Part shown: positions 19,631 through 43,295 of the stretch, piece by piece | Layout of the letters: every line of letters begins with the position of its first letter | Position numbering within the stretch: position 1 is the stretch's first letter | Origin: Proteromonas lacertae | Lineage: Eukaryota | Assembly (NCBI GenBank): GCA_002245135.1 | Contig: NGBS01000011.1 | Span: 124,001-170,212, forward strand | DNA: 46,212 bases | Direction of reading: 5' to 3' | Notes under the pieces: model-generated | What the model was told of the DNA's origin: nothing | Seen by the model: only the letters and a program-made list of their open reading frames with translations | Databases searched by the model: none | Program-made: the position numbers and the translations under genes

Positions 19631-19650
19631 CTTCTCTGGTATATAGTATA

Positions 19651-19845
19651 TAAATGGGACCCTGGGACATTGTCACAGAGTCCTAACGAGTTTTCTAGGG
19701 GTCCGTCCCTTTCTAGATTCAGAGTTGACTTTTACGGGGCCTTGCATCGATGAAGCTCCCGTAAAGGTCAACTCTGAATCTAGAAGGGGACGGACTCCTA
19801 GAACACTCGTTAGAACTCTGTGACAATGTCCCAGGGTCCCATTTA
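19651..19845. repeat. 195-nt imperfect palindrome (left terminal hairpin of A)
   Basis: taaatgggaccctgggacattgtcacagag...catcgatg...ctctgtgacaatgtcccagggtcccattta, centred on CATCGATG. Confidence 0.97.
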
Positions 19846-20088
19846 CGTAAGGTTCCTACGGGATTCCTCCTAACGGAGTCTACTTCCCTACGGAGACTCT
19901 TGGAAGCTATTTCTATACCTATCTATGAGACGATCTCCTACGGGTACTCCTGGAAGCTATCTAGAAGTGTTGATTACCTCGAGGTGATGAATCTAATCAC
20001 GCTCTTGACTCTCCTTGCTACGCTGGTGACCTTGTAAGGGCTTTTAATTGAACTGTGGAAACCAATCGTGGAACCGGGAGTTTACAGT

Positions 20089-20800
20089 TGTTAACTTGTT
20101 ACCAATTGTTAACTAGTTACCAATTGATAACAAGTTACCAAATGGTAACTCCGGGAGGTTCTAGCTAGTAGTGGATTTCTCAAGGGCCCTTGAAGATAAT
20201 GATTAGCAATCTCGGAAGGCTTCTGAAGGTATGTTTTATCATCCTTATAACTTTCCTAGATAAGTTCATCCAAGACCTTCCCGAGAAGAACAGCCGTGTT
20301 GGCAAGGAAGGGAATCTCCCACGATGGGAGATTCCCTGACGCAGTCATGCACGGCTGGACGTATCTGGGAAGGTGCCTTAATGGTTCTTCTATTAATCAG
20401 TGACTTTATAACTGGAGGTTCTGGTTAGTACTGGATTTTCTCAAGGCCTTGAAGATCATCGTAAGCATTCTCGCTTCCTAGAGGTAAGTCTAATCGTCCT
20501 TGTTAATCAACTAGGTAACATTCAACTATCATCTATCCTAGCAAGGAAGGGATGTTCCTCCTTGAGTTACAGCTCAAGGAGGAACCTCCTGACAAAGCCA
20601 AGGAACTTCCATCAAGAGACTGCATTACAAAGCCAAGGAACAGGATCATTGCCTAGGTAAGTTTCATTGCCCTTCTAAGACTTGAATCCAAGATGCTCCA
20701 GCTAGTTCTGAATTTCTCAAAGGCCTTGAAGATCGTGATAAACAATCTCGGGAGGGTTCTGTAGGTATCTTCCATTAGCCTTGTAAGTCATCTACTAGGA
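20089..20800 (+). repeat. Non-coding repeat/hairpin array in A (iterated TTGTTAAC/GTTACCAA, three ~110-bp degenerate units, two stem-loop cassettes)
   Basis: Units sharing (t)ttctcaa(g/a)ggcc(c)ttgaagat start near 20153, 20414 and 20696. Hairpins at 20310-20336 and 20554-20585. Confidence 0.8.
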
Positions 20801-21098
20801 AGCTCCTTACATACCAGTTTAGTTTATTTATTCCTGAAGGTAAAGTTCATTCCCGAGGACAGCATCATCATCTAAGCAATCGTAGAAACGTGAATACCGT
20901 GATTGGGAAGCTTAGGATAAGTAGGAACTTACCTGAGCACTTGTTAGAGATGTTACTGGAGGTAAGCTAATGAGCAATTTCTTAAGGTCAATTCCCCATC
21001 ATCTGTCCAATGGAGATTGAATAGGAATCATTCTGAAGCTATTCACTAAATACTGTAGCTGAACAATACATATACTAGGATCAGCAATCCATAAGTAA

Positions 21099-21163
21099 GG
21101 TCAAGATGCCCTAGTGGGCAGACCAGGTACCAACATCCCATCCCCTCCGGGTTCGAACCCCAG
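21099..21163 (+). ncRNA. tRNA-like RNA polymerase III unit (box A/box B), not a full cloverleaf
   Basis: Box A-like TGCCCTAGTGG (21107-21117) and box B GGTTCGAACCC (21150-21160), 32-nt spacing, T-arm-like CCGGG-TTCGAAC-CCCAG. Confidence 0.55.
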
Positions 21164-21718
21164 TACAGCTACTGCTTATATCTGAACCACCTCCTACATA
21201 GCCTTGCCTCATCAACTCAGGAGATCACCAGCAACTTTTAAGATCCAAATTCTAAAGAAAAAATTGAATAGAGATGAATCTGTAATCAACAGTTCACTAC
21301 GTAGTACAGTACCAGATACCCTAACACTGGAATGAGATCAACAGCAGGAGCTTAGGAAGCATTGAGTGACCCCTACTACAAGAAGCCTAGGAGTTGGAGG
21401 TGCATTCACAACTCTGATAAGGCCAAGAAAAATTGAACTGACCGGACTTAAGGACATCGTAAGGAAGGTTTAAAAATAGGGACATAGAAAATAGATCCTG
21501 GACTTAGTTGCTAAATTCCAATAGCTTATCTAAGTGATCAATATGTAGTAACCAGTTACAGACTATCTACTAATCATCATTCCTAGATATGAATAAGAAC
21601 TCATAGAAGTAAAGCTAATAAACAAGTGACTAATAACCATGAGATCAATATGTAGTAACCAGTCAATTATTACAGTCACTCAAGGCATTAAAATATTTCT
21701 AGTTATTTTTATACTTAA

Positions 21719-22507
21719 TTGGTAACCATGCAATCCATCGTCAAATGTAGTCGATGTAAGAAGGAGTTCCAATCTGAAGCTGATGGAAGAGCATACAGCT
21801 GTTGTAGTTCTTGTAGAGCTCTCTTACGAAAGGCAAAGCAGAAGACAATAGCCCGATGCCATGAGGAACGTAAAGCCTTGGAAGAGAACGGTGAACTCAT
21901 AGCCAAGACTATGTCCTGCAGTAGATGCCATATGCACTTCGCTTCATCGATGATGTTAAAGCCCAATGGAGACTACTATCGATGTTGTCCAAGATGTAGA
22001 TCTGGGAAACCTACTAAGAATCAACAACCAGGAATCTCCATCAACTCCAGTGATAAAACAAGGGATATAATTAATCAGCTTATGCAACACAGTATACATG
22101 AGATTCTTAAGACAATCAAGGACAACAATGATCTAATCGACCATGATGGGATGTTCGATAAGATTATTTCATTTCCATGTGATGCTGTTCACCTCAAAGA
22201 GAAGTCTTGCCAGGCCAAGATAGTTTTATCTATCAAAGATGGACATATCAACTTTCACGTAGATCCAAAGGTAAAGTCACTTCCGATGTGCTGTCTCTTG
22301 AGTCTGTATCATCGCTTAAGACAATATGAAGATCATCTCCGACTCAGGATAGAATCAATGAGGAGACAAAAACAGCTTAGTAATCCTCCGAAGAAGAGAC
22401 CGATAGCAACACCCTCACTACCATCGCTAGGTGCTTCAAGTGATCCTCCAGCAAAGCATCTAAAGCTAGCTTCTGAAGCAACTCCTTACCAGGCAAAGTC
22501 ATCATAA
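21719..22507 (+). CDS. Double Cys4 zinc-finger protein with C-terminal NLS-like motif (element A)
   Basis: CSRC..CCSSCR and CSRC..KPNGDYYRCCPRCR; PPKKRP. Likely ATG at 21728. Confidence 0.8.
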   Translation: MVTMQSIVKCSRCKKEFQSEADGRAYSCCSSCRALLRKAKQKTIARCHEERKALEENGELIAKTMSCSRCHMHFASSMMLKPNGDYYRCCPRCRSGKPTKNQQPGISINSSDKTRDIINQLMQHSIHEILKTIKDNNDLIDHDGMFDKIISFPCDAVHLKEKSCQAKIVLSIKDGHINFHVDPKVKSLPMCCLLSLYHRLRQYEDHLRLRIESMRRQKQLSNPPKKRPIATPSLPSLGASSDPPAKHLKLASEATPYQAKSS

Positions 22508-22514
22508 CTTCCAC

Positions 22515-22515
<1 letters not shown>

Positions 22516-22560
<45 letters not shown>
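22516..22560. repeat. (AGT)15 microsatellite
   Basis: Directly visible just after the Zn-finger stop codon. Confidence 0.97.
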
Positions 22561-22561
<1 letters not shown>

Positions 22562-23751
22562 AACGCATCTCCTGATAAGGAACGTGATTAACATTGTTGG
22601 TACTTAGTAAAATGTTACCATGGGTATGACCGAGGACAATAGAAATAATCAATTCAAGGAACCTTACGGAGATGAGCAACTCAAGGACATGGTAAGTAAT
22701 CAATTCAATAAACTAAAGGAGTCTTGGATAAGTTAATGATAGTAAGGACATCAACAACCCTGAGATAACATCCTTGGATCAATGACTCTGAAGATCATGA
22801 AGTAGTTGTAGGTACATAAAGAGTTACAATTGCAGACTATAGGAAGTGTGATCGATAATCCTTTACCTGAGTAGTCCTTACTTGTGATGCTAGGAATCAT
22901 TACTAGTAAGTAAGTAAGTAGACCAGAGATATCGTATACTCCTCAAGTAGCAACACTGGCATAGATGTCCAAGAGTCTATAAGCTATCGATCGTAAGGTG
23001 ATTATCAGTAGATAGGTAAAGACACTGACTTCAATAACAATACCGAGACTAGTAGTGATCAGACTGAAGGCTAGTAAATTACCGAGGATCAACAACTTCG
23101 ATGAACTAGAACTAGAAGGAATTGTCACTTGAGGGGTTACCATCAGTTCAAGAGATAGGTATCGGTAAAGATCACAAGTAGTTCTTCAAGAGATGTTAAG
23201 GATGAGATCAACTCTAACTTCAGCAGTCAGTCTCAAGGTACTTACCATAGCAGTGATCATAGACTGCTAGAACCAAGAGTGAAGACAAAGTACTTCATAG
23301 GTAATGCCTGCCACGTTCGAGAAGTCCAAGAAGGTAAAGGAGCATCTGGAATAGAGACGATTAGTAGATCCTTGGAAGTCAAAGCTGCAAGTGAAGTCTA
23401 TAGAGAGTAGTTGAACTTCAAAGGAGGCTTCTGACCATCGTATAAGTCTTATCGGAATAGAAGCATTGTAAGTTAAGATGGTAGATGATGATCGAGACTA
23501 TGAAGTGCACAGCATAGAGATCACGCAACTCATTACAAAGACCGATAAAGTCATCTACATCCATCAGCTAGTAATCGTAAGGAGTTGAAGTTCATCGTGT
23601 GGATAGAGTAAGCAAGGTACTTCTCGGGAGGTAGGCAAAGCTGTTGAAGGCCAGGACATGCTATGATATAAAAGATACCTGAGAAGTCATCTAAGTAAAG
23701 TAGCTCCTGGATCTATAAGTAAAGTTCTGATCTGGAATCATTACCTAGGCA

Positions 23752-26211
23752 ATGTTCAACGCCGGGAACAACTCACGTGAGAACGATGAGGAGATGTTAA
23801 GGTTGCTTAATACTATTGACAAGACTACTTACGATGTGAAGCAAAAGATAGATGGGAAGGTCGTTGTTAAGTATGATAAGGACGTGTTGTTCCAAGACTC
23901 CCAGGAAGTGATTCAAAAAGCCTTGGGTTCTGGTGAACTCAAGGCCGTGATAGACTATGATAAGATCAATCCTCCATTGGTAAGCACTATCCAAGAAGTC
24001 CTCCGAGGAACACTAGTCAGTATCAATCAGAAGCAACAAGAAGAAGTAACCTCATCCACAACAGCTATCAAGAGAAAGTTAGATGATCACTCGGAGGAGT
24101 CATCTACGAAGTTGGCTAAGCTAGAAACTGATCATCAACAACTCCATGAGTATCTTCAAAGCACCTTACAACCAGATCATAAAGCTATTCAATCGACCTT
24201 AAAGGAAGTGCTAGATGAGACTGATAAGATTGAAGGTATCGATCAGAAGCTCCAGGAAGTCAAGAACCTAGGTACTTTGCTTAACAACAAGATCCCTAAA
24301 GACTTCGGAGATACGACTATTACAACCTTGAGCAATATCATTACTTGTGGCAATGAACTTAAGCAGTACACGGAGAAGCAATTACCAGAGTTGTATAAGA
24401 GCATGGAGGATGTAAGCAATGCCCTTGAATCCACCAACACTTCAATCGATCAATTGAAGGGATCAGAGGATGAGAAATTGGATCGTCTAAGTACCTTGTT
24501 GAAGTCATTATGCGAGAGTCTCAATATCGGGGATGTTAACGTCTACGATATGATCAAGTACATCACTACGGTGGATGATAAGAGCCTTACGAAGCTCACT
24601 GACTTAGAGAAGCAGATCAAAGTAACCTCCGAGGAGTTGATCAAGATGAAGAACAACTACGAGGAGTACAAGGCAATCAATACTGTGATCAACAATAACA
24701 TGATTAAGTTCAAGGAGGTCTTACAAGAGATTGAGATTGCCAATGGTTACAACAAGGACTTCAAGAACCAGATGAATGCTATGGAGGAAGAGATCGCCGG
24801 GTTGAATGGAGAAGCTGACAAGACGAATACCTTCTGTACTGCGGAGAGAGCTACCGCTATTGACAAGACCAAGGATATTGTAAGTAAGATAGATATCGAT
24901 AATATCAACCAGTATTGTAGTAGCTCACAGAAGGAGAAGATTGATAAAGTCCATGAGCTGATCACCGGCATAGCCATCGAAGACATTAACAACTACTGCT
25001 CCTTGGAGAGACTTACCATTGTCAAGAGTATTGAGGAACTGATCAAAGGATTCATTACCGATAAGAGAACTAAGGAGCTCGACGATGCCGACATTACAAT
25101 CAAGGAGTTTTGTACTATCCCGAGAAGTGCTGCTATCGATGAGACTAACACTGCTGTGAAGCACTTCTGTACTTCGGATCGATCGGAGAAGATAGATAAG
25201 TGTTATGAGCGTGTCCATGACCTCAACAAGGAGAGTATTAACCAGTTCTGTACTGAAGGCCGAGGTAACTTCATTGATATAACAAAGGCCAGCACCGATG
25301 CAATCAAGATCAAGGTGGATTCTCTAAGCATCAACGATGTGAATGCCTCCTGTGGCGTGGCTAGAAGGACTGAAGAAGACAACCTCCGAAGGAACTTGGA
25401 TGGCTTCTTTAACAACACTCGTAAAGGACTGATCGATACAGCTATCAACAATGCAGCTGCTATCAGAACCAAGATCGATGGATTCAATACTGGGAATGTC
25501 AATAGCTTCTGTTCACCAGCTCAATTAACCAAGGTCAATGAAGTACATTCAAAGATAGGAGATTGCCAGACAAGAGTCATTGAAGTCCAAGGCAAAGTCA
25601 ACAACCTCAACAACCTGGCTGTGACTCAAGTAAATAACTTTACCAGTGCAGCTCAATTAAGTAAGATCAACTCAGTCGATAGCAATGTCCAGGATGTCCA
25701 GAAGAAGTTGACCGAGTTGAAGACATCAGTAGAAAGTTTGGCTTCTCAAGGAGATGGATCATCGGAGATCAAGACCGTACTTAACCAGATGAGTAACACC
25801 TTGTCTTCGATATTGAACATGACAGCAGCTAGCATGGACTCTCCTCTGGTGGCAGTTCCCATAAGCTTCTATAGTACAGTAAGACCTGATTGTATATTTG
25901 AATGTTTACTTAAGGCTTACGTCAATCGTGTAGAGCTGGAGTTCATATCAAGCAGCGGATGGATCGGGAAAGTGTGGGTGAAGGATGTGAATGCAAAGGG
26001 CTTTGCTAAGTTCAAGGAGTGGTTCCATCTTGATAAGAAGATAAGTCACTGGGTTGTTCCCAATCCTAGCGATCCTAACGTGACTGATTATGACAGACAC
26101 TTCCTTGAATTCATCCCCGCCGACAATTCAATTCATTGTGAATTCGGTATGATGCCAGGTAATGGAACAAGAGCAATCTGTATAGATGCTAACTTCAATG
26201 GTCCTCAATAG
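23752..26211 (+). CDS. 819-aa coiled-coil repeat protein with a small beta-rich C-terminal domain (fibre-like; element A)
   Basis: Intact ORF. Long heptad-like region and ~10 repeats of [IV]NxFC[TS]xxRxxxID, ending in an aromatic/beta-rich ~120 aa tail. Confidence 0.8.
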   Translation: MFNAGNNSRENDEEMLRLLNTIDKTTYDVKQKIDGKVVVKYDKDVLFQDSQEVIQKALGSGELKAVIDYDKINPPLVSTIQEVLRGTLVSINQKQQEEVTSSTTAIKRKLDDHSEESSTKLAKLETDHQQLHEYLQSTLQPDHKAIQSTLKEVLDETDKIEGIDQKLQEVKNLGTLLNNKIPKDFGDTTITTLSNIITCGNELKQYTEKQLPELYKSMEDVSNALESTNTSIDQLKGSEDEKLDRLSTLLKSLCESLNIGDVNVYDMIKYITTVDDKSLTKLTDLEKQIKVTSEELIKMKNNYEEYKAINTVINNNMIKFKEVLQEIEIANGYNKDFKNQMNAMEEEIAGLNGEADKTNTFCTAERATAIDKTKDIVSKIDIDNINQYCSSSQKEKIDKVHELITGIAIEDINNYCSLERLTIVKSIEELIKGFITDKRTKELDDADITIKEFCTIPRSAAIDETNTAVKHFCTSDRSEKIDKCYERVHDLNKESINQFCTEGRGNFIDITKASTDAIKIKVDSLSINDVNASCGVARRTEEDNLRRNLDGFFNNTRKGLIDTAINNAAAIRTKIDGFNTGNVNSFCSPAQLTKVNEVHSKIGDCQTRVIEVQGKVNNLNNLAVTQVNNFTSAAQLSKINSVDSNVQDVQKKLTELKTSVESLASQGDGSSEIKTVLNQMSNTLSSILNMTAASMDSPLVAVPISFYSTVRPDCIFECLLKAYVNRVELEFISSSGWIGKVWVKDVNAKGFAKFKEWFHLDKKISHWVVPNPSDPNVTDYDRHFLEFIPADNSIHCEFGMMPGNGTRAICIDANFNGPQ

Positions 26212-26698
26212 TCGATGTGTGTTGGGTGAACTATCGGAGGATAACTATAAGCAGTGACCACCTTCGGAGCTGCCCAACCATGCTGCAAATAGATTACCTT
26301 GCTTTGTTGGGCAGCAATAACTCCAAGAGATTCAACAACCCTGGATGATGATCAAATGAAAGTACCTTCTCAATGATCCTGGTAATGAAGAAATCAGTTC
26401 TTCTTCCAGGTATGGACAAGAACGTCTACGATGGAACCTTCCTTACCAAGTCCGATATTGCTCCGCAACATCGTCCTTGGTAAGGAAGCTTCCTCTGAGA
26501 CATTCTTACCCATACTCCGAAAGAGATCACTGCTTCTTCATTACCATCACCTTGTGGTAACCTACACTTCTAGATAGCTTCCAGGAGTCCCCGTAGGAGA
26601 TCGTCTCATAGGTAGGTATAAGTAGGTATAGAAATAGCTTCCAAGAGTCTCCGTAGGGAAGTAGACTCCGTTAGGAGGAATCCCGTAGGAACCTTACG

Positions 26699-26893
26699 TA
26701 AATGGGACCCTGGGACATTGTCACAGAGTTCTAACGAGTGTTCTAGGAGTCCGTCCCCTTCTAGATTCAGAGTTGACCTTTACGGGAGCTTCATCGATGC
26801 AAGGCCCCGTAAAAGTCAACTCTGAATCTAGAAGGGGACGGACTCCTAGAACACTCGCTAGAACTCTGTGACAATGTCCCAGGGTCCCATTTA
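26699..26893. repeat. 195-nt imperfect palindrome (right terminal hairpin of A)
   Basis: Inverted copy of 19651-19845 with a better-paired outer arm. Confidence 0.97.
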
Positions 26894-26939
26894 TATACTA
26901 TATACTCTGGTTGGTCATTTTTTGCCAGTAACACCTTTA

Positions 26940-29900
26940 TCCACTCTCTTTTAAAGTTCTTCTTTCTATTCCGAAATTCACTGGTAAATTACCTATGTTA
27001 GTTATTGTAAATGTCTTCGTCTTGCAATCAATTCGAACTACATTACCAAAATCTACTACAACCTAAATGTAAATTAGATATTTTCTTATTCGCCATTTTT
27101 GTTGTTTTGCCTGTTTTATTACTGATATTTGTTAAACCAGTTTCAGGTGTTTTTGTGGTTTTATCAACTACTCCTTCACTTTTTGAACCATTTATTGATG
27201 TTCCATTTAATTCTTTCTCTTTTCGAGGTAAACATAAATTAGCAGGATTTTGATAGTTTATTTCATCTAATAATAAATCAATATAATATAATCTTAATGC
27301 TTCAGATTCTCTATCAACTGTGATTTGTAATCCTGTTGTATTCTTTCCTGAAGGTAATTTGTTCGTATTTGTTCGTATTTATCATTCTGTTGTGAATTCT
27401 TACTTCTGACAGAAACTGATTTTTGACTATTTACTCTTGCAGTATATTGTTTCTTGTTTTCATCTTTTTCTTTTTCTTTAGATTTTTCTTCTTCTGCATT
27501 TGTATTTGCTATTGTTGGTTCTTCACTATGTGGTGCTAATTCTCCTTCAATTTTTGGTTCTGGTGGTAATTCTTTTAACCATGTGTTGGTGAATTAACTG
27601 GAACTCCATCTACAATTATTGGCTTTTCAGCTTCAACTGGTTTTTCTTTTTCTTCTTCTGTTGATGGTTGTTCTGGCTGTTGTTGTTGTCTTGCTTCTTC
27701 TCCTTCAGTATTTATAATAGTGTTATTATTACTTTCATCTATTGAAGATTCCACTACTTCAGGTAAAGATGGTTGTTGTTTGATTGGTGATGGTAAAGCT
27801 GGAATGATAATGGATGTTCTGTATTGGATAATTCAATCAATCTATCAGCTTCTTCCAAGTAATGTTCCCAATTATCTGGTATTACCAATTCAGCATCATT
27901 CACTTTGATATTTGCATAAATACCTGTTATATAAAGTGGAAAATCTATTGGAACATAATGAGCTATTTCTATTACTAATTTCTCTATTACTGAATCTGGA
28001 ATTCCTACTCCCATCTTAACAGAGATTCTTTGTTGATCATGAGATGGAATTAATCCATTACATGGTGAAACACCAACTAAACCAGGTCGAGATACACTAT
28101 CAGTTGAGATTTTAAATGGAAAATCTACTGAACCTGTATTAAATATATGAAAATCTCTTTCTTCTACTTTCATATAAGGAATTCTACCAAAATCAATATT
28201 CTGTTTATCCAATCTATAAGATACTACAGAACTTTCACCTTTCATTTTGATATTATAAACTGGTCCTCCATCTACATAACATTTACCCAATGCTCTTGAT
28301 AATACATGTAGTATTCCAGAATATCTCAATTCCATTTCTTCACATTCACCTATTTATAAAATACCTTGAATTGGAGTGATTTCAAATACTTCATTGATTG
28401 GAGATGTTTGATTTTCAGTTTCATCTATTTCTAATTCCCAATGATAAGGACAAGGAATTGTTCGACGATTTTCAGTTCAAAATCAAAATCATTTTTAGAT
28501 AACCATAAATTGGGAAAGGCAACATCAGCTGCACATGGAATTGAATCTTTCTGAGGATGATCTTCATATCTTATATTCAATATTCCATTTATTTTACATG
28601 AGATTTTATCATCTTTATAATTTGGATCAAATTCCACTGTCACATTCATTGATTCATTTGGTTCTAAATGGAATTCATTCATACTCAATAATAATGGAGC
28701 TGCTATACTTATTATCACATCTAAACTCAATGTTGATATATTCTTAAATACAACTGTCTTACTTTGAACTTCGATTTTCTCTTCAGAACATTGAATTAAT
28801 GGATTCATAAAGTTCACTTTTACTTCGGTTTCTTTTGCTTCATTATTTCTTATTTCTCCATCAAATTTCCTCAAACAAGAAAACATTTTCATCACTTCAC
28901 AGGGTTTTTCACAACTTCCAGATGTTACAAAATTACAAGCAGTATTGGGTTTTAATTCGATTGCATTGGGAGTTATAGTAAATATAGCTTCATAAGGTTT
29001 GAATTCATTTCACTTTCCATCTTTGATTTATTGGCTTTAAAAGATTTTTCTTTTTCTGCTGCAGTTTGATTTATCCAAGTTAATCTTTGACTTCTTAAAC
29101 CTCGGTTTTCTAATAAAAATACTCTTTCGATTGTTCTGTTTGTGAATTGATCACCAAAATCAATTACATCTACTGGATCTTCTCAAAATATTGTTGTTAT
29201 TATACATTTAGCTGTAACTGGAAGAATTTCACTATCTCCTTCAGTTGCTGCTATGTATATTGTATCTTTATAAGCTGATACATCTTCCAACATACAACTA
29301 ACTACTATCTTTTGAGATTCTTTACTTTGTAATATACCATCAACTATATCAGTATTAAAATAAAATCCTCGTTCAAAATCTAATTTATAAAAAGCTGGAA
29401 TTGAAGTTGGATTAGTTATTGTAAATTCTTTTGTATGAGTATCTAAACAAGTTATATCACCAAATTTTATATGATTTAAATTTGACTTTATCACTGGTCC
29501 AAGTCCATTTGCTTCTAATACTAATACCAATGGAGGATATTGACTGCCAATTATTTGAATATATAATGGAATTCTCAAATCACCTAATTTCTCAGGATTT
29601 AATTAAACTTGAATCATTTGAGTTGCCATTGGTCCAATTACACCTTTAGCTGGATCAGGGAAATAACTACCAATCGATTTACTTCTTTCATCTTGTTCTG
29701 TTTTCAAATTGAGCACTTAAATTGGATTTATTCTTTAATGTTAAAGTTCGATAATAAGTATATCTTAAATAACAATCTCCATATTTCAATGATTCTTCTA
29801 ATAATTCTACTTCAGCTACTCGACATTCAGCACTTATTGGAATTGTTAATAAAGCTTCACCTACACTTTCAATATCAATTGCTAAACAATAATCATATAC

Positions 29901-30390
29901 TTTTATTGTTTGAGATATGAAATTGACTTTGATTTTCTCTTCTCCTTCAGGTAATATTGTTGCTACTGCTTGAATTATTTCGAATTCTTTGTTTAAGTAA
30001 TTACCATCTTGAGGAACTCGTAAATTGAATATAAATGGAACAGAGGAAGTATTTCTTAATATCAAATCAGTTGAGTTTAAAAACGCATAACTTACAATAC
30101 CAAAATCTAGTTTATTCTTATTAAAGAAGAATGTTGGACCAACTACATGCCCTTTTATTGTTAATACCACATTATTAGTTGCTCCTTTTAATGCAAATTC
30201 AAAATGATCACTAAATTCACCAAGAGTTGAACTTGTATAAGATACTTCGATTGTTACACTTTCTTCTATATCTAATTCACCTTGGTGGAGTAAATATTAC
30301 ATTTGGTTTAATTGATCCTTCATTGGTAAGTGATACTTCATATCGATGTGTTGAATTAATAAATATATCACCAATATCTAATACATCATA
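26940..30390 (-). pseudogene. HYDIN: Hydin-like fragment (more N-terminal portion), multiply frameshifted, inside the Ginger TIRs
   Basis: YDVLDIGDIF; KGHVVGPTFFF..LDFGIVSYAF..NTSSVPFIFNLRVPQDG; CYVDGGPVY..GESS..IDFGRIPY; VVDFGNVVRIDCKTKTFTITNIGNLPVNF. Confidence 0.85.
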
Positions 30391-30433
30391 AAATGTTTGA
30401 GAGGTTTGAATTGATTTTTACTAAATTGACTTT

Positions 30434-30499
<66 letters not shown>

Positions 30500-30500
<1 letters not shown>

Positions 30501-31335: not shown

Positions 31336-31336
<1 letters not shown>
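30500..31336. mobile_element. Tc1/mariner-type MITE (837 bp, 179-bp TIRs, TA TSD) inserted in a (TAA)n microsatellite
   Basis: ta|CAGTGATTTTACTTTTAC.. (30500-30678) and ..GTAAAAGTAAAATCACTG|ta (31158-31336). (TAA)n on both sides (30435-30499, 31337-31370). No transposase. Confidence 0.93.
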
Positions 31337-31371
<35 letters not shown>

Positions 31372-32044
31372 TATATATATATAAATATATAGTACTTACA
31401 TTTTGATTTTCTGAAATTAAAAAAAACTGTCAAGTTTGACAAGCTTGATTTTTCTTTTTTGAAATATCTTCTTATCTTGATAGAATTTTATAACATTCTT
31501 CAAAGTGTCTGCTGAAATTCATTTTTTCTCTTTGACTGAATCAAAAAAACATACAAACAAAAAAGTTGAAGAAAATGAAATTTTAAATTAAAAATGACGT
31601 CAGAAGGGGTATAATTCTTAATTCCTGTGTAACTGACACTTCTCATTTAGACATTATATGTCAATAAAAACATAAAATTTGGAATATACATAATTTCTAG
31701 AATATATTTTGATAGTTTTTATTCAATATTATGACAATTAATAGTTACTCATAGATGTAGGTTATATGACAAAGTAAGTATAAAAGTAACAATTTTTCAT
31801 TAAAAGAAGTGTAATTGTGTATTTAGTTTGTTTTGAAAGTGTCTGGTAGACAAACGGCCAACTATGACAAACGGCGCACAACATATGGGTTTATACTTTA
31901 GCAAGTTGAAGTGGTTTAGCTTTTGCAGACATATACAAAGTTTGTATTTCAGAATAAAGTAAAAAGAATTTTAGAAGATCAAATAATAATGAGGCATTTC
32001 TACTCAAAAGGATAACAAGATAATCTCGACTATATTAATTTTGG

Positions 32045-34156: not shown

Positions 34157-35097
34157 GTGATTATTTTTTACTTTGTAGTTGTTGTTATATTATACTATAA
34201 AATATATCTAAAAACATATGATTACATCTTCATAACTACACTACCACCTTTGTATTCATATAACAAATATATAGTCAATAAATCATTAACTAGGTTGTTA
34301 GAAATAATAAAAGAAAATGGACTAATAATACTATATTATCAAAGTGATTTAAAATTATATTACGTTTATTGTTTAAATAAATGTCTATTCATCAGAATAT
34401 CCTTGTATAATATTTCAATATTATGTTTAGGAATAATAGTTATGGATCGCCATTCTTTTATCCAATGATAAGAGAATCTATAACAATAACAAAGTGTAAG
34501 CTAATTATTTATTTCAATTCAGATATTGTATTTCATAAAAATATTAAGAAATTAATAAAACAATTAGTAGATGATTATAAACTATTACATAGAGAAATAT
34601 TAATTGTAGGAAAAAGAGGAGATATATTTTGGAGAAATTATTCAACATATTCAAACCATGATTGTATTTGGGAAAATAGCAAAATTCATTCAGGAAAAGG
34701 AATAGATTATTTCATATTTTCAAGATTTTCTTTTACATATAATAAAATCATCATACTTAACGAAATAATTGTAGGAAGGGTTAGATATGATAATATTATT
34801 TTGGCTTTAATGTTAAATGATAATAACACCATTGTTATTGATAGTACATATTTTATAAAAGCTCTACATTTAAGTGTATCAAAAGAAGAAAAGAATGAGT
34901 TGATTAAAGTATTGTTATATTTAATATATTACTAGCATCAAAAGCATACAGATTATTTCTATAACTATAATGTAACAAAGAAATACAAAATAGATTATTG
35001 CACTGTATTAGGATCAGTAGATAATATTAAAATCCATATTGATGAAAAGAATTATATATCTACATTTATAAACATTTCTAAATGTAGTAATACTTAA
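34157..35097 (+). CDS. Glycosyltransferase-like membrane-anchored host protein with tiny introns (34405-34430, 34909-34935)
   Basis: Motifs NSYGSPFF, YFNSDIVF, VGKR, GIDYFIF, VGRVRYDN. Removing the 27-nt GTATTG..TACTAG intron extends the frame to TAA at 35097. The 5' exon structure is uncertain. Confidence 0.6.
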
Positions 35098-35389
35098 CCC
35101 ATATTATGAAGACAAAAAAAATACCATTATTATAACATTTTGTTGTATTATAAAATACTTTAACTGTTTGTATTTTAGTGAATGAAACATTTAAATAAAA
35201 TAGTTTATGTGATAAGACAATAACAAGATTAAAGTTTTAAAGTAGAAACAGCTCATGATAAATGAAGGTGCTGAATGAGAGGAAGAAGATAATGAAGGTA
35301 AATCTATATAGTATATAAATGGGACTCTGGGACATTGTCACAGAGTCCTAACGAGTTTTCTAGGGTACCTTTATTATCTTTTATTTCCT

Positions 35390-35460
35390 TTTGCAAGATT
35401 TGAACCCGGTTGGGCTAGTACTTCCTACGGCATTCCTCTGACCATTCGGGCTACGCCCCC
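35390..35460 (-). ncRNA. tRNA-derived RNA polymerase III unit (box A/box B), acceptor stem not closed
   Basis: Minus strand GGGGGCGTAGCCCGAATGGTCAGAGG..CCGGGTTCAAATCTTGC. Box A TAGCCCGAATGG, box B GGTTCAAATCT, 35-nt spacing. Confidence 0.6.
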
Positions 35461-35693
35461 AAGGAAATGAACCTTCAATCATGTATATATACCTTCATAT
35501 ATTGAAACCACTAATTTGCAATTCTATTATGACTATCTTGTAACGACTAAATTCAATTCTATTTTGACTAATACCCAATACACTGGTACTATGTATTGCA
35601 TTTGGCATTTTACAATTAATGGTTATGAATCGACACTTCTCATAGTTTCAAATTTCCTGCACTTTTTAAACTTTGTCAATTACGTAATTTACC

Positions 35694-37021
35694 ATGTCAA
35701 AAAGATCTCGTACCTGTGAGTTTTGTAATTATTGTGGTCAAGGAGCTGTTGATAAGATCACCATGCGTATGGAAGCTTCCTTGAAGACTGATGACTGTCA
35801 GCCTGATAAGAAGAAGGTACTTGCTTCATTGCTTTATTGTTTATAGGTAAAGACCGAGGCTATCTGTAATGACAGTGATAGTGACAGTACAGAACCATGC
35901 TGTGATACTCCAAGGGATCTGTCCGATGTAGAGACCGAGATTGATGATGATGATATTGAGTTTCAAAAGGAGCTTCTGAATCAGAGAGATCCTGTCACTG
36001 AACCGGTTGAAGAACCTTTAAAGGAACCTTCAAAGGAACCTTCTGAAGAGCTATACTCCTCTTCCGAAGAGACCTCCGAGGAGGGATCTGTGGAGATACC
36101 CAAGTACTGGTCTCCGATGAACTACTGTCAGGAAGTCAAGAGACTTTACCAGATCATCCACGATTGCTTAACCAAGTCCATGCTTCACTACCAAGAGATC
36201 TGTGATACTCCATCTCATGAAACGGATACTTTTATAATCTTACTTGGACAGGTCAATGATAGTAAATTACTTTCCCTGATCAATAGTGAATGGAAGATGT
36301 CCTCCAAGGATCCAAGATACTTTACTGAGTGGTGCTGTAGACAAAGTCGTATCTATCAACATGCTGTGGATCTGCTAGACTATGTTCTCTTTATGAAGCA
36401 TAACGCCAACAATGATTCTCTCTATGAATTGACTGCCTACAAGAACATCGTCCGTAAGCTCCAGAGTAAAGTTAATGCCTTGATTGAATTCCTTCAGTCC
36501 ACAAAGACCACATCCGATACTCCTGAGCAGTTCACGGTCTTTATGAGTTATCTCCGAGACTTCCAACAGTATAGCCTTGATCTACGATGCAATGCTACTT
36601 CCTTACTCAGCTACTACCATCAGTTCCGAGAGAGCTTACTTCAAGAGCATCCACACTTCGACTATTACAAGGATAAGGTAATCACTCAGCTATGGAAACT
36701 CAACGATCTTGATAAGGAGGTGGAAGCCCTTACTGACTTTATATCCAGCACGTCACCGACTTTGAGAACGTCGTAAACAATCGCATAGGTATGATGACTA
36801 GAGCTAACTTTAGAACCCTTTGCCGTAACTACTCCAAGATGTATGATGAGCTGATATCCATTCTCAAGTACCCAGTCTTACAACTCCAGGACAATCTCTA
36901 CGTACCATTAGACTGTGACTCTTTCAAGAGCCTTAAGAAGTTCCACGATCTAGTTGATGATCTCAAGCAGTCCATTGCTAAGATTCAAACGATTGCTAAC
37001 TCCTTCTTAAGCTTATTCTAA
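35694..37021 (+). CDS. Spliced helical protein of element B (30-nt intron 35817-35846; probable frameshift near 36745-36776)
   Basis: ATG 35694 MSKRSRTCEFCNYC..PDKKK|VKTE.., acidic linker in frame with ORF 36090-36776. The 36791-37021 ORF continues in another frame. Confidence 0.7.
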
Positions 37022-37108
37022 TTCCCTTTACTTTGCTTACTCTCGTTATTGTTTCTGGGAATCCCTAAGCACTAGTTTCATAATAAAAAATACTGTTTAA
37101 GTAAAGCT

Positions 37109-37774
37109 TCAATGATCTTGCTCCCACCAGTTGAGAAGGTGCTCCTCGGAGTCGATGATCAGCTTAGAGACGTACTTCCTAGTCTCAATAAGAGCTCCTT
37201 GAAGGTGTAAGATGTAATCGATCCTTGACTCTTGATAGTACCATCTCTTCTTTGAGGATACTACTGTTGCCTCGGAGGTAACAGTAGTATCTCGTTTCTT
37301 TGCTTTACGACGACTCTTACTATTACTCAAGACACTTGCGTAAGTGATTGCTTTAGTAACTTTTTCCTGGTCCTTGTCCTTCACTTGAGGAGTTTCTTGT
37401 GATGTCTCCTTCTTGAACATCATCAACCAGCAGTAAGTATGGAGTAGACACTCCTCCATTATCTGGACGATCTCCTTGAACTTCTCTTGAAGCTTAACGA
37501 TATCATCCTCATAGTAGTACAGTTCAGTAATGACTTTGCTATCTAGTCTATCGCACTTCTCCTTCATAGTATAGAACTGCTCTAGCAAGTGATCGACCTC
37601 ATTGTCGGAGATGTTAACATCTCTCAAGAGGCTTCTTGTTAACTCTCGATCAGCAAAGTAGTTCTCCTCCACAGCATTAAAGTAAGTGTTGATCTGGCAG
37701 GCTCCGTTCTTGATAGTGCTGATGTACTCACAGTGCTTACCAAAGAGATTGTAAGGGTCCAGGCAGGTTGTCAT
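37109..37774 (-). CDS. Hypothetical helical protein (element B)
   Basis: 221-aa ORF with basic patch KSRRKAKKR, part of a tightly packed minus-strand run. Confidence 0.65.
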   Translation of the reverse strand: MTTCLDPYNLFGKHCEYISTIKNGACQINTYFNAVEENYFADRELTRSLLRDVNISDNEVDHLLEQFYTMKEKCDRLDSKVITELYYYEDDIVKLQEKFKEIVQIMEECLLHTYCWLMMFKKETSQETPQVKDKDQEKVTKAITYASVLSNSKSRRKAKKRDTTVTSEATVVSSKKRWYYQESRIDYILHLQGALIETRKYVSKLIIDSEEHLLNWWEQDH

Positions 37775-37777
37775 TCA

Positions 37778-38287
37778 CTAGACCGCATTAACCATCAAGC
37801 AATGGAACTTAAGTCTTAGACTAGCAGCTTTCTTATAGACTGGATAGTAGATCTCAGACTTACACTTTCCCATCGTGTACTCTGCTGATATCATTCCTTC
37901 CATGGAGTATAGGAATAGACATGCCCGGCTCTGGTAAATGCTCTTCTCTACGATCTCATGATCCTTCAACTCACAGTCGGTGATACGATGAAGGCAAGTC
38001 CTTAACACTTCCTTAGCTTTGATCACTGACTGATGAACTACCTTGAGTAACATCCTTACTGAGCTGTGAACTTCCAAGTCACTCTCAGTGATTCCTTTGT
38101 TAGCATTGTCGATCATGATAAAGTGCGTGTCCAGAGCTAATTGTTCACACTCCGATAACTTCTCTTGAGCTTCCTTGACTAGAAGAGTCCATTCATTACC
38201 TTCTTGGATTCCACGATCGGCCTTATGAATACACACTCTCGGGTAGATTGGTAAGAGTCTCTTGTCGGGTTGATGAATTGAGATCAT
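37778..38287 (-). CDS. Hypothetical helical protein (element B)
   Basis: 169-aa ATG-started ORF, 3 bp from the next gene. Confidence 0.6.
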   Translation of the reverse strand: MISIHQPDKRLLPIYPRVCIHKADRGIQEGNEWTLLVKEAQEKLSECEQLALDTHFIMIDNANKGITESDLEVHSSVRMLLKVVHQSVIKAKEVLRTCLHRITDCELKDHEIVEKSIYQSRACLFLYSMEGMISAEYTMGKCKSEIYYPVYKKAASLRLKFHCLMVNAV

Positions 38288-38327
38288 GTTTCTGGAGTAG
38301 GCAAGAAATTTAATAATAGCTTATCGG

Positions 38328-38660
38328 CTATGAGCTCTTCCTCTGAGGGTGTCGATGATGAAGATGATGATGACTTCTTCGATCCGATGAATCTACAGCC
38401 TGATGCTTTACGTACTTTCTCTTGACCCTGAATGTGAGCTGACGACATCTCTTGAGTTCTTCTCGTTGAACAGGAGTAAGTCGATAAGCTTCTCGGTTAA
38501 AGATCTCCTCGGGACTTAGTGTTCTTTCAGTCATGCTCCCATCCTTGTTAAACTTAAAGATCATTATCGTAGCATCCAGATCGATAGTGCAATACTTGCC
38601 TTTCCTATGAGAGTCTTGGTTATTGTCAGAGTCACTTCCATCCATAGAGTTGTATTCCAC
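38328..38660 (-). CDS. Hypothetical basic/His-rich protein (element B)
   Basis: 110-aa ORF ending RRSHHHLHHRHPQRKSS. Confidence 0.5.
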   Translation of the reverse strand: MEYNSMDGSDSDNNQDSHRKGKYCTIDLDATIMIFKFNKDGSMTERTLSPEEIFNREAYRLTPVQREELKRCRQLTFRVKRKYVKHQAVDSSDRRSHHHLHHRHPQRKSS

Positions 38661-38687
38661 TCCTTGATAAATTACCTTACTGTACTT

Positions 38688-39161
38688 TTAATTACCACTG
38701 ACAAACAAGTCCTCGGAGGATTCATTGAGTGCCTCAATGCTCCTCCGGGACTTCTCTATCTCCTTTAAATCTTGATCCAACTTCATTTGAATCTTGCTCC
38801 TTGTTCTCTCATCCACCTTCTTCACATTCACGTGGACGTGTTTATTCCTTTGCTTACTCTCACTTACTTCATCGATGAGTTCCCAGACTTTCTCGGGATA
38901 GATGATCATCATGTCTCCATCCTTCCAATAGCCCGAGGTAAGCGATTGCTTATAAACCGATCGATAGACGTCTCCTTGATTGTTGAGCCATAGCTTATAG
39001 CGATCAGTGTACTTAGGATTCACTGATACTCCAAAGTACCACGATGTTACCTTTACTTGATCATCAGAGGATGAAGTCGTTGTTGAAGTCTTGAGCTCTC
39101 CAGTCTCAGTAAAGAACTTTGCTTTCAATGAACCTAGTTGACTTCTACTATCCTTCATCAA
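38688..39161 (-). CDS. Hypothetical protein (element B), 5' end probably degraded
   Basis: 157-aa ORF with an aromatic beta-like core and coiled-coil tail. Confidence 0.55.
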   Translation of the reverse strand: MMKDSRSQLGSLKAKFFTETGELKTSTTTSSSDDQVKVTSWYFGVSVNPKYTDRYKLWLNNQGDVYRSVYKQSLTSGYWKDGDMMIIYPEKVWELIDEVSESKQRNKHVHVNVKKVDERTRSKIQMKLDQDLKEIEKSRRSIEALNESSEDLFVSGN

Positions 39162-40105
39162 GAGATAGAACGGGTGCTGACGATCACAACCTGCTGGAAC
39201 ATCCAGGCAGATTCCATCACTTACACTCTCGTTGAACTTCTTTGAGTTGAATACTTCTACTTCGATCTTGAGGTCCCATAAGAATTGTAAAGCATAACCT
39301 TTGTGTAGATCTCGGTACTAGAATATAGATGGGTAGTCGTACCTCCGAAGCTTTGTTGAATCTCGACATCCACAAACGAAAGGAGTGCATCGATAGATTG
39401 GAGGAGTAAGGACTGGGTAATGTTGATAGTCGATAACTAAGTCCTAGGAGATCTCAGGTAATGTCTTCTCCGAGGATTGCATGGTAGGGACTGTCATCTT
39501 TATCGATGAGCTATTGATGGTAATCATGCTCTTCCAGGAATTCATTCAATGAAGGGAGTAGTTCAACTTTTCCTATTGAAATAACCCAAGTGCTTACAAT
39601 GCCTAAGAAACTTACCCAGGAGAGTGATGAAGAGATCTACTAGGTCGATGATCCCTTTAACAATGAACCTGACGATGACTCCTTGAAATCAATTCACTTG
39701 AATCTTCCATGGATCCAGATTGCAGGCTTTGCAAGTGACCTCCAGAACTACTACCATTAAAGGGTATCTAACAACATTAACTATTTTGAATCAGGTCCCG
39801 ATAACTTCATCTCCTAGATGATCTTCATCGTCTATACGCAGAAGCCAAGTGGTTAGCAAGAGATTTAAAAGCTGATCTGATGGATGCTGAAGGTACCATG
39901 GAGGAACGCGTTGTTTCAAAGTCCAAGGGTGATAAGAGACGAAGACTCTAACTAGCTTAACAACGTCCCTTGATAATTCACTTGCTTTATCATCACCTTC
40001 TATCTTATTGGGATCAATTTTACATGAGTAAAATCATTTATACACGATTGCTTAAGACCGAGAATTCATCTAGTTGCAATTTTCCAAACGATCCCGACAA
40101 AGTCT

Positions 40106-40471
40106 ATGAGTCCCAGGAAGTCATCACGCAGATCATCATCATCAACCAACTCTAGCATTGATAAGTCATCCAAGGAGGGTAAGAAGCTCCGAGTAAAGAA
40201 ACAAGGAGCTAGTAGTAGAACCATAAGGAAGTCATCACCGATGATTACGGAGCAAGGTAAAGCAACACTCCGGGAAGAACTCATTGAAGCCATTGTGGAT
40301 AACTTAAGCTTATTAGCAACCATTGCTCCAGACTACATTAACGATGAACCTTTAAGTACACCACCATCTACTCCTAAGAGACTTACAAGGAAGAGCACAG
40401 CCCGAGGAAGTAAAGAACAACAACAACAACCAAGGAAGTTGAGCCCAATTAAAGTTGGTAGCTACTCGTAA
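40106..40471 (+). CDS. Small basic Ser/Arg/Lys-rich protein, possible DNA-condensing core protein (element B)
   Basis: MSPRKSSRRSSSS..TPKRLTRKS..PRKLSP, with SP/TP-basic motifs. Function is inference. Confidence 0.55.
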   Translation: MSPRKSSRRSSSSTNSSIDKSSKEGKKLRVKKQGASSRTIRKSSPMITEQGKATLREELIEAIVDNLSLLATIAPDYINDEPLSTPPSTPKRLTRKSTARGSKEQQQQPRKLSPIKVGSYS

Positions 40472-40871
40472 GGCCGGGAATAAACGAGATGTTAGAGTTC
40501 ATCCAGGATGTGATCGTAAGGTACCTTTAAAGTCCAAGGATGAAGTTAAGCTTATCAAGACTTCTTGTAATGAGACTGGAGGACACGACGCTATCCAAGT
40601 AAAGGATCTTGCTTCTTATAATGGTACAGTGATACTAGTTAGTCTAGATGGCCAGATGATTATGGAGATGGATCCAGACCACAACCAGATAAGACTTCAT
40701 TTGGATCCTGACTTTAACCTAGCAAAGGAATCCATGGAGGTATGGGACAATGCATTCTACGTTCCTTATGATGATACTAAGAACTTCTTCCGAGTCTGTG
40801 ATGATGCTTTAACCTTGTTAAACCTCCCGAGAATGGCATCCACCTTCAAGAAGATGGTGAACCATAAGTAG
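40455..40871 (+). CDS. Hypothetical protein (element B)
   Basis: 138-aa ORF overlapping the previous one; may be a frameshifted continuation. Confidence 0.5.
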   Translation: MVATRKAGNKRDVRVHPGCDRKVPLKSKDEVKLIKTSCNETGGHDAIQVKDLASYNGTVILVSLDGQMIMEMDPDHNQIRLHLDPDFNLAKESMEVWDNAFYVPYDDTKNFFRVCDDALTLLNLPRMASTFKKMVNHK

Positions 40872-41049
40872 TTGCATTATGAGCTTAGTTCATTTACTTA
40901 CGATAGCTGTCTTGTCTTGGGATGATAAGCCTTTTACCTTGATGAACTTTGATATCAGCTGATGAAGACCTCGGTAAAGCTCTTATTGTTGATTGATAAG
41001 AACCCTCTTAGCAAAACAACACCGTAAAGTCAAGGGATAAGTAATTACT

Positions 41050-42120
41050 TTAAGGATCATCAAGAGCTGTAAGCTTATTGATAACATCACCTGTCTTGTA
41101 TAGTAGCTCCTCCAACTGCTTATCATCAGGAGTATAGACAACAACTATCTTGTTGATGATCTTCAAGTAGCTCTGATTCAACGATCGGATACTTTGCTTC
41201 TGTTCATCATCCTGGTACTTGAGTTCTTTCATCAGCTTCAGGCACTTTACAAGATGACCTTGAATGTATACCGACTCCTTCTTCTTAAGAGTTGATGATA
41301 TTCCCATGGAGTTGCAATAACTTTTCTTGGAATCCTTAGTTAAGCAGGTGAGTTGGATGTGATCATTAATGGAACCTAGGTACTTCTTAAGGCAGTAAGG
41401 ACAGAGACCACAGGAAATGTTCTTATCGGTGACTCTAGCAGCAGTAATCACGGGATTATCAACATCGATCACGTCCATTGGATTAGCAATCACGGTATAA
41501 TGATATTGAACTTGATCATCCTCCTCGGCTTCAAGGTAAAGTAAGTGAACAAAACGATCAGGAGAAGTCATCGGTAAAGTACGGCTACTGCGTCTGGCTA
41601 ATCGTAAATGCGATCCCTTCAATTGATAGATGTGAACACCCACATTATTGTTCTCTTCAAAGGAGTCGATGAGTCTGAAAGATGATATTGGATTTGCTAT
41701 AGGGTGTTGGTAGTTAATGATGTACTTGCTCAAGTACTTGGAGTACATCTCAGGATTCTCAATGGCTGCGTTCTTACTGAGTTGATGATGATGAAGAGCT
41801 GCGATTGCGGAGTAAGCAAAGCTGAACATAGCAATACGTACATTTATAATACTGCTAGGATCAATCACTTCCTTGGGCACCTCCAGCAGTGCTTCGATGA
41901 AATAAACTTTGTTGACCCGTGACTTCTTAGCTGGATGATCCTCAGCTGCCTTATGAAGTTCCTTATGTGATCTCTTGACCTTACCTTCGGAGGATGAATC
42001 TACCAGTGGTGTGTAGTTGCTTACCTGGGATAGTTGAGAAGCTAAATTGAAGTCCCTGGAGGTGTCTTGTTCTATGACTACTTTATCATTCAATGGAGAT
42101 GTTGCTTGGGTTGGATCCAT
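41050..42120 (-). CDS. Stand-alone homologue of the Polinton pPolB N-terminal vOTU-like + CxxC..H..C zinc-finger module (catalytic Cys apparently Ser)
   Basis: SFAYSAIAALH..IDSFEENNNVGVHIY..VHLLYL..YHYTVIAN..CPYCLKKY..DHIQLTC parallels the Polinton pattern CFxWAIL..I..FE..N.I.INV...LL..HY..I..CxxCL..H..C (compare DCFWRAINSCL..IDKVEQTYDLNINVF in the local pPolB). Confidence 0.7.
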   Translation of the reverse strand: MDPTQATSPLNDKVVIEQDTSRDFNLASQLSQVSNYTPLVDSSSEGKVKRSHKELHKAAEDHPAKKSRVNKVYFIEALLEVPKEVIDPSSIINVRIAMFSFAYSAIAALHHHQLSKNAAIENPEMYSKYLSKYIINYQHPIANPISSFRLIDSFEENNNVGVHIYQLKGSHLRLARRSSRTLPMTSPDRFVHLLYLEAEEDDQVQYHYTVIANPMDVIDVDNPVITAARVTDKNISCGLCPYCLKKYLGSINDHIQLTCLTKDSKKSYCNSMGISSTLKKKESVYIQGHLVKCLKLMKELKYQDDEQKQSIRSLNQSYLKIINKIVVVYTPDDKQLEELLYKTGDVINKLTALDDP

Positions 42121-42488
42121 TTATACTTCACTAGGTAAACGATTTCAACTATTCAAGGCTATCGAAGTTACCAATTGTAAACTCCTGGTTCCACGATTGG
42201 TTTCCACGATTGATTTACTAATCACCAGCGTAGCAAGGATAGTCAAGAGCGTGATTAGAATCATCACCTCGAGGTAACCAACACTTCTAGATAGCTTCCA
42301 GGAGTACCCGTAAGAGATCGTCTCATAGATAGGTATAGGTAGGTATAGAAATAGCTTACAGGAGTTCCCGTAGGGAAGATGACCCCGTTGAGAAGTAGAC
42401 CCCGTTAGGAGGAATCCCGTAGGAACCTTACGTAAATGGGACTATGGGACATTATCACAGAGTCCCATTTATATATTATATATAAATC

Positions 42489-43250: not shown

Positions 43251-43295
43251 TTATAACAACTTCTTATCTATATCAAAACCCCAACAAACATTTAA

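Follow-up and report, generated by a model that had tools for sequence, protein, structure and literature searches.

Two insertions with common ends and different genes

The 46,212-nucleotide (nt) stretch of Proteromonas lacertae DNA analyzed here (contig NGBS01000011.1, positions 124,001 to 170,212; the window) holds two insertions, elements A and B, which belong to one family of approximately 7 kb, with common ends and different genes, and were inserted independently. The sample is one copy of each, within this window. Their open reading frames (ORFs), terminal inverted repeats (TIRs) and target-site duplications (TSDs) are collected in Table 1. A preliminary description of the window had given boundaries, lengths and 6-bp TSDs for both elements, and all of these proved exact (CTCTGG for A, TAAATC for B). 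Given the local base composition, a 6-bp flank match would arise by chance with a probability of 6.8e-4 at A and 5.6e-4 at B. A reading frame is interrupted by each insertion. Around A, the frame of an rve integrase gene reaches both edges, and the duplicated hexamer encodes the identical dipeptide on either side; around B, a decayed frame likewise reaches both edges. The insertions are real and precise, because the TSDs are exact and the frames are split on both sides. In-frame stops of the neighboring genes may partly be read errors.

Table 1. Features of elements A and B and of their insertion sites (positions in the window)
Feature	Positions	Strand	Description
Older third remnant of A-type subterminal region	8454..8640	+	Contains an intron-like segment
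rve integrase gene, target of A	18461..19633	-	Frame resumes from 26911 onward; also carries an in-frame stop
A left TSD	19634..19639		CTCTGG
Element A	19640..26904		7,265 bp; GC 41%; coding 45%
A left TIR	19640..19989	+	11-nt tip; 195-nt palindrome 19651-19845; CCTACGG three times, at 19855, 19887 and 19937
Block common to A-left and the B right end	19815..20097	+	Reaches ~110 nt past A's own TIR
Imperfect palindrome of short tandem repeats	20074..20155		z -6.0; 0/200 shuffles
Three diverged ~270-bp units	20150..20980	+	31-34-nt GT..AG intron-like segment in each
A1	21728..22507	+	259 aa; four CxxC motifs (predicted zinc-binding)
Non-coding or decayed region of A	22508..23751		No supported gene model
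A2	23752..26211	+	819 aa; long coiled coil, ~27-residue Cys-bearing repeats, ~120-aa C-terminal domain
Imperfect 167-nt hairpin inside the right TIR of A	26380..26546	-	RNA fold of core z -14.2 (minus strand), -8.4 (plus strand)
A right TIR	26545..26904	-	Near-perfect 195-nt hairpin 26699-26893; CCTACGG three times
A right TSD	26905..26910		CTCTGG
B left TSD	35299..35304		TAAATC
Element B	35305..42482		7,178 bp; GC 41%; coding 72%
B left end	35305..35445	+	61-nt common terminus, then unrelated sequence; diverged CCTACGG at 35424
B1	35694..36776	+	Predicted 350 aa; predicted 30-nt phase-0 GT-AG intron 35817-35846; acidic N-terminal part
B2	36737..37021	+	94-aa open frame; overlaps the end of B1
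B3-B6	37109..39317	-	Four closely packed orphan ORFs of 221, 169, 105 and 156-209 aa
Probable pseudogene in B	39599..39951	+	In-frame stops, frame change
B7, B8	40106..40871	+	Orphan ORFs; B7 121 aa (basic, Ser/Thr-rich), B8 142 aa
B9	41050..42120	-	356 aa; stand-alone homologue of the pPolB vOTU and zinc-finger region; ATG 45 nt inside the shared-block end
B right end	42165..42482	-	Tip, collapsed 39-nt palindrome 42433-42471, block shared with A-left
B right TSD	42483..42488		TAAATC
Decayed coding relic at B's insertion site	42489..43280		Left stub 35245-35298; A/B-like composition

A and B had been said to begin with a common terminal motif, and this was borne out at all four ends: a window search for the 21-nt motif, allowing at most two mismatches, returned exactly four sites, which are the four element ends, B-right having one mismatch. 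Each of these ends starts with TA. In A, both TIRs are laid out as an 11-nt tip, a 195-nt palindrome and then approximately 150 nt with three CCTACGG motifs, and the left and right copies show 339 matches and 11 mismatches (of 350) with a single 10-nt indel. The right hairpin of A, folded as DNA, reached -109.5 kcal/mol, and none of 200 shuffled sequences was equally stable. CCTACGG occurs nine times in the window, every time within the ends of A or B.

The ends of B are less complete. Its left terminus is identical to that of A-left at 60 of 61 nt, and the right palindrome has lost 156 nt by deletion across a 6-nt microhomology, so that 39 nt remain; the two ends of B pair with each other over only 44 nt, compared with TIRs of 350–360 nt in A. 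The description of A and B as sharing matching hairpin termini is thus accurate for A, with its two 195-nt palindromes, but not for B, where the right hairpin has collapsed and the left end keeps 61 nt. Similarly, the approximately 270 bp of shared subterminal sequence is present (A-left 176–457 against B-right, 251 matches and 20 mismatches), but at the right end of B only.

A variant at position 22 was found in all three surviving B arms and in none of the four A arms, which indicates that the ends are homogenized within each lineage. Mismatches number 20 over the 271 positions of the shared block, compared with 11 over 350 when the two TIRs of A are aligned; B is therefore a separate lineage with its own homogenized ends. 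The two hairpins of A are oriented alike relative to the end (5 differences, versus 17–23 for the flipped form). Three mismatches of the A-left outer arm (19682–19710) recur at the B-left end (35347–35365), and at those positions the A-right outer arm agrees with the inner arm; this pattern suggests that one arm corrected the other or that the ends exchanged sequence. No match to the terminal pattern was found in viral contigs, and five matches in metagenome contigs were rejected as chance, being just 21–25 nt long with dissimilar flanks.

Both elements are richer in GC than their surroundings, as first noted: 41.4% in A and 41.1% in B, versus 21.6–33.0% in seven neighboring regions, with 40.2% in the approximately 800-bp relic around B. 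Second-order Markov models gave A a score of -1.324 under its own model, -1.329 under that of B and -1.399 under the best non-family model. GC at third codon positions (GC3) was 0.39–0.55 in eight A/B ORFs and 0.13–0.27 in 13 neighboring ORFs. The Polinton resident in the window has a GC content of 28.6% and a CpG ratio of 0.12, versus 0.51–0.57 for A and B. Judged by GC, Markov score and GC3, the cargo of A and B is neither host-like nor derived from the resident Polinton, and that element was ruled out as their parent by its composition and the lack of a common end sequence. A reassigned stop codon was also ruled out because long AT-rich ORFs stay open under the standard code.

The absence of a shared ORF, claimed in the preliminary description, was confirmed by tblastx and by tblastn and blastp of 16 ORFs. 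The relic around B has no genes in common with either element; because it has the A/B composition but other genes, the gene pool of the family exceeds A plus B. The lengths of A and B differ by 1.2%, or 0.9% when the 156 nt lost from B are counted, and such agreement arose in 1.4–2.4% of draws under uniform random sizes in a post hoc test.

Gene content and a link to the Polinton polymerase

The family is tied to Polintons by B9. A profile was built from the N-terminal region of protein-primed DNA polymerase B (pPolB) in four relatives of the resident polymerase (P0001–P0004), with B excluded. Two of 625 window frames passed this profile, the resident pPolB and B9 (E 1.3e-10 for B9), and the 36.8 bits scored by B9 compare with 12.6 for the best of 500 shuffles. 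When a full-length pPolB profile was run on 198 read-through chunks, B9 was the only match in A and B, at positions 182–361 of 1175, and the resident gene matched along its whole length. A search of 1.84 billion proteins returned a single match to B9, P0006 (E 4.1e-4), with the same domain and motifs. The pairwise comparison of B9 with the resident pPolB was not significant (E 0.20), and the homology is visible only through a profile or a closer relative. No match was found among 2,086 candidate proteins, and three weak matches to PDB sequences (E 0.03–0.09, one to a human enzyme) were rejected. In the catalytic column, B9 has Ser100 in place of the Cys found in five of five relatives; His207 is retained. 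From position and motif, we infer that B9 is a vOTU domain as described in PMC11161782, followed by a zinc finger, and it is this vOTU/zinc-finger ORF that connects the A/B family to Polintons. The resident pPolB itself (10769–14254, minus strand) is decayed into two ORFs and, compared with the 64%-identical P0001, is missing a block inside the vOTU/zinc-finger region.

Core functions were not detected. In Pfam and NCBIfam, all 11 A/B ORFs stayed below the curated cut-offs, and PHROGs gave nothing better than E 0.01; B1–B8 were scanned against these three collections only. Neither an rve integrase nor a tyrosine recombinase was found in the 11 ORFs (Pfam, NCBIfam), and pieces of the resident integrase had no match in A/B read-through frames. 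The full-length profile found no pPolB exonuclease or palm domain in the read-through chunks of A and B, and none of the Pfam matches to the 11 ORFs was to a helicase family. The double jelly-roll major capsid protein, penton, A32 ATPase and maturation protease gave no Pfam, PHROGs or NCBIfam match, although a divergent penton could escape such scans. There was also no DDE transposase of the IS3EU/GingerRoot lineage, or remnant of one, on A or B. The original statement that the elements encode no integrase, polymerase or helicase therefore holds for the integrase, the polymerase core and the helicase, but it overlooked the pPolB-derived B9.

A1 has no homologue in Pfam, PHROGs, NCBIfam or viral contigs. 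The large A2 protein is predicted to be helical from heptad analysis: periodicity at residues 70–360 and 590–700 was matched by none of 200 shuffles each, and that at residues 360–600 by 4 of 200. The C-terminal domain (residues 700–819) has no heptad periodicity. This layout of coiled coil and C-terminal domain makes A2 a plausible candidate fiber or spike protein. AlphaFold2 models of A2 made without alignments (predicted local distance difference test scores of 38.7 and 42.6) had no fold match at E 0.001 in PDB or BFVD. At the sequence level, A2 had no match to PDB sequences, residues 340–819 had none among 7,999 candidate proteins, and neither the whole protein nor residues 690–819 matched the Atlas. 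A search of viral contigs with A2, B9 and A1 was also negative.

Much of the remainder of A appears to be non-coding. In 22508–23751, the best spliced gene model scored 24.6, compared with 24.5 for the best of 30 shuffled controls, and none of six read-through frames had a Pfam match; in 20150–21727, spliced models were also not above shuffled controls. Three diverged units in the left part of A carry their intron-like segments at an equivalent position (20229, 20484 and 20765), and the remnant at 8454 has one as well. A long hairpin follows unit 1 (20270–20380; z -9.3) and unit 2 (20530–20620; z -4.7), and unit 3 has no significant structure (z -0.6; 55/200 shuffles); the folded windows of A were picked after a prior scan for structure. 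G-U strand bias in six hairpins was not significant (p 0.25–1.0), and Rfam gave no match at the gathering score in the window and none at E 1 in 19640–23800. At a guess, 20150–20980 is a candidate spliced precursor of hairpin small RNAs. Taken together, A looks like a structural/RNA type, with a fiber-like protein, a zinc-finger protein and a hairpin cluster.

B, in turn, looks like an accessory-gene type. Removal of the predicted intron of B1 fuses an upstream exon of 41 codons in frame to the remainder of the gene; at 30 nt, this intron is in the size class of the 27-nt intron of a neighboring host-like gene.

Surrounding mobile elements and host-like genes

A Ginger-like TIR element (15742–31883) has TGT..ACA ends with 113-nt arms that are 95% complementary. 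It spans the integrase interrupted by A, a downstream protease-like ORF and a hydin fragment, and it is inserted in the 5' part of an apparent Polinton integrase (15497–15741). No exact TSD was found for it. The protease-like ORF matched no family; its motif is one that we take to be of Ulp1 type. A third copy of the Ginger-like right end (8322–8452) directly adjoins the A-type remnant, and a 114-nt palindrome at 16358–16471 contains the Ginger-like TIR motif twice.

Hydin/CFAP65-like fragments at 1500–3600 (plus strand) and 27100–30400 (minus strand) lie in opposite orientation, both frameshifted and pointing into the nest of mobile elements; their breaks may reflect decay, capture or read errors. 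Together with the short introns, these hydin-like genes suggest that the host is a flagellated protist. Three orphan ORFs of 320, 279 and 434 aa (3531–6680, minus strand), one of which includes 39-nt repeats and a stretch rich in Ala and Thr, matched no family at the curated cut-off and possibly belong to the resident Polinton. A 909-bp element resembling a miniature inverted-repeat transposable element (30464–31372) has 215-nt inverted arms (95%) and TAA microsatellites at its ends. At 1–810 (minus strand), a piece of an ABC-transporter-like gene, with a Walker A motif spotted by eye, carries a 27-nt GT-AG intron, which falls in one size class with those predicted in A and B. Glycosyltransferase-like genes at 8792–10102, 34423–34935 and 43311–45466 are intron-free and very AT-rich and sit among the mobile elements; two gave GT92 Pfam matches.

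Origin of A and B and comparison with known systems

These data indicate that A and B are genuine, that they are non-autonomous and derive from Polintons, and that such a pair is unusual. We favor, with a probability of roughly 0.45, the interpretation that they are evolved helper-dependent satellites of a Polinton-like virus absent from the window, moved in trans. The preliminary description had proposed size-constrained satellites or segments mobilized in trans; what stands of this is one non-autonomous family with common cis-acting ends and a trans-acting enzyme, to which the evidence adds Polinton ancestry. Under the satellite hypothesis, the protein-primed polymerase of the helper would start at the common ends and yield linear copies of each element. 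The terminal palindromes would fold back and the TIRs would pair, which would homogenize the arms within a lineage and at times delete a hairpin, as in B. A retroviral-type DDE integrase acting in trans would recognize the TA..TA tip and insert the element with a 6-bp duplication. The nucleus would be the site of transcription for the accessory genes, and the host would splice their transcripts, as the predicted short GT-AG introns suggest; packaging into helper capsids could keep both types near 7.2–7.3 kb.

Several points weigh against this hypothesis. No helper with the A/B ends was seen in the window, where each type has one copy and the resident Polinton differs in composition and has no common end. 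The truncated left end of B, its pseudogene and the 55% of A that is non-coding all fit decay from a larger element. The TA..TA ends are closer to IS3EU/GingerRoot than to the classical Polinton, the agreement in size between A and B is a single post hoc coincidence, and the A2 models are of low confidence, with no fold match at E 0.001. The free linear form and the packaging are steps that we infer.

The marks of decay bear on the possible, though rather unlikely, origin of A and B as internal-deletion derivatives of a larger Polinton-like virus (approximately 22 kb or more), which kept different accessory genes and were moved in trans with no evolved size types. A left TIR of B reduced to 61 nt, a collapsed right hairpin, a pseudogene in B and long non-coding stretches in A are all in its favor; so is the relic around B, with the same composition and other genes, which points to a gene pool larger than A plus B, and TIR-flanked truncated endogenous virophages are known (PMC8547959). 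Deletion would need, however, non-overlapping gene retention, loss of every core gene with no detectable fragment and final lengths within approximately 1%. The genes at the ends of B look whole, B9 starting just inside the end of the shared block, and B9 is remodeled rather than freshly truncated, its pairwise match to the resident pPolB not being significant. It seems improbable that A and B are instead segments of a multipartite integrating Polinton-derived protist virus, with polymerase, capsid and integrase on other segments of approximately 7 kb. Segments with a common terminal sequence have precedents (PMC6521256, PMC8363768): 53 nt are common to the bidnavirus segments, which measure approximately 6.5 and 6 kb (PMC6521256), to be set beside the 61-nt common terminus of A and B, which are also equal in size, identical in composition and without a gene in common. 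The relic could represent a third segment type, B9 parallels the degenerate PolB homologues of Vesanto virus segments (PMC8363768), and A, with a zinc-finger protein and a large, possibly structural one, is laid out like bidnavirus VD2 (PMC4061559), by analogy only. The segments would have been inserted one by one because all carry the same tip. We would give little credence to the fuller picture of provirus-like segments, each with an integrase-recognition tip and a hairpin origin, which would leave the virus dispersed in pieces over the host genome, and a single segment combining a fiber-like gene with a spliced hairpin-RNA cluster is likewise a long shot. Neither element has a recognizable essential gene, no core-gene segment lies within the window, general family scans of A and B showed no similarity to bidnavirus proteins, the asymmetric ends of B are unlike those of a panhandle segment and bidnavirus inverted terminal repeats (ITRs) are described as forming no hairpins (PMC4061559).

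The ends themselves raise a further, doubtful explanation, under which the two elements would be non-autonomous transposons of IS3EU/GingerRoot type, moved by cut-and-paste and carrying virus-derived cargo, with no replicating or packaged free form. Repeated subterminal motifs are typical transposase-binding sites, which those of A and B resemble. The 6-bp TSD had been taken as a Polinton-type signature; this fails because IS3EU/GingerRoot also has it, with TA..TA ends (PMC10045372, PMC6839031). As described, IS3EU families always have TA..TA termini and usually a 6-bp TSD, the stated signature of this lineage (PMC10045372), and GingerRoot elements, with TA..TA ends in 72 of 77, measure 3.9–12.9 kb and frequently carry cargo, including gene fragments (PMC6839031). 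TA..TA ends could also occur in the Polinton-like viruses of protists. The cargo of A and B, however, is not host-like (41% GC, GC3 approximately 0.5), is compositionally uniform across A, B and the relic, and consists of long intact ORFs, not fragments. No transposase remnant was found, and 195-nt terminal palindromes are absent from the available text of the IS3EU and GingerRoot descriptions (PMC10045372, PMC6839031).

Protist genomes abound in Polinton-like viruses, which are sought through their capsid genes, so elements such as A and B, in which no capsid gene was recognized, would be missed. The literature searched, mostly outside subscription journals, yielded no account of Polinton-derived elements that are flanked by TSDs, equal in size and disjoint in gene content. 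If A and B are segments, they would show a monopartite Polinton splitting into a multipartite virus, a step proposed for bidnavirus origins, plus separate integration; if they are simple deletion products, they offer a well-resolved case of Polinton decay and palindrome collapse.

With Polintons, Mavericks and Polinton-like viruses, A and B share a 6-bp TSD and a GC contrast to the host, A also long TIRs and B a pPolB-derived domain (PMC12220804, PMC10120064, PMC8547959). They differ in being at most half the size, with Polintons and Mavericks at 14–40 kb (PMC12220804), in having no pPolB core, integrase or recognizable capsid, ATPase or protease, and in the 195-nt terminal palindromes of A and ends of TA..TA rather than the AG..TC of Polintons (PMC6839031). 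IS3EU and GingerRoot elements resemble A and B in TA..TA termini, 6-bp TSD, size range and cargo (PMC10045372, PMC6839031, PMC12730594), and A and B are distinguished from them by the lack of a transposase, virus-like intact cargo and longer TIRs with palindromes.

In bidnaviruses and Vesanto virus, molecules of similar size carry different gene sets but end in a common sequence (PMC6521256, PMC8363768), an arrangement also found in A and B. These viruses resemble B in a polymerase ancestry that traces to Polintons, in the degenerate PolB homologues of some segments and in an inactive vOTU (PMC6521256, PMC4061559, PMC8363768). Unlike A and B, they are insect viruses with PolB, and bidnaviruses also have parvovirus-like capsid and helicase genes (PMC6521256, PMC4061559); the available accounts describe no integrase or TSD-flanked insertions, and bidnavirus ITRs without hairpins (PMC6521256, PMC4061559, PMC8363768).

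Transpovirons are the precedent for helper-dependent replicons of approximately 7 kb with TIRs (PMC7031253). Both A and B are of that size, and transpovirons are linear, with a zinc-finger protein and a vOTU of Polinton origin; their TIRs measure 380–520 nt, compared with 350–360 nt in A (PMC7031253, PMC11161782). Unlike A and B, transpovirons have a conserved helicase, of superfamily 1, fused to pPolB domains and an active vOTU, and they ride on mimiviruses (PMC7031253, PMC11161782). In A and B, for their part, neither a helicase nor a palm domain was detected, and the vOTU of B has no catalytic Cys. Both elements are chromosomal and flanked by 6-bp TSDs, a spliceosomal intron is predicted in B, and no gene is common to the two types. 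If they are evolved satellites, A and B would be an integrating, nuclear and intron-bearing counterpart to transpovirons.

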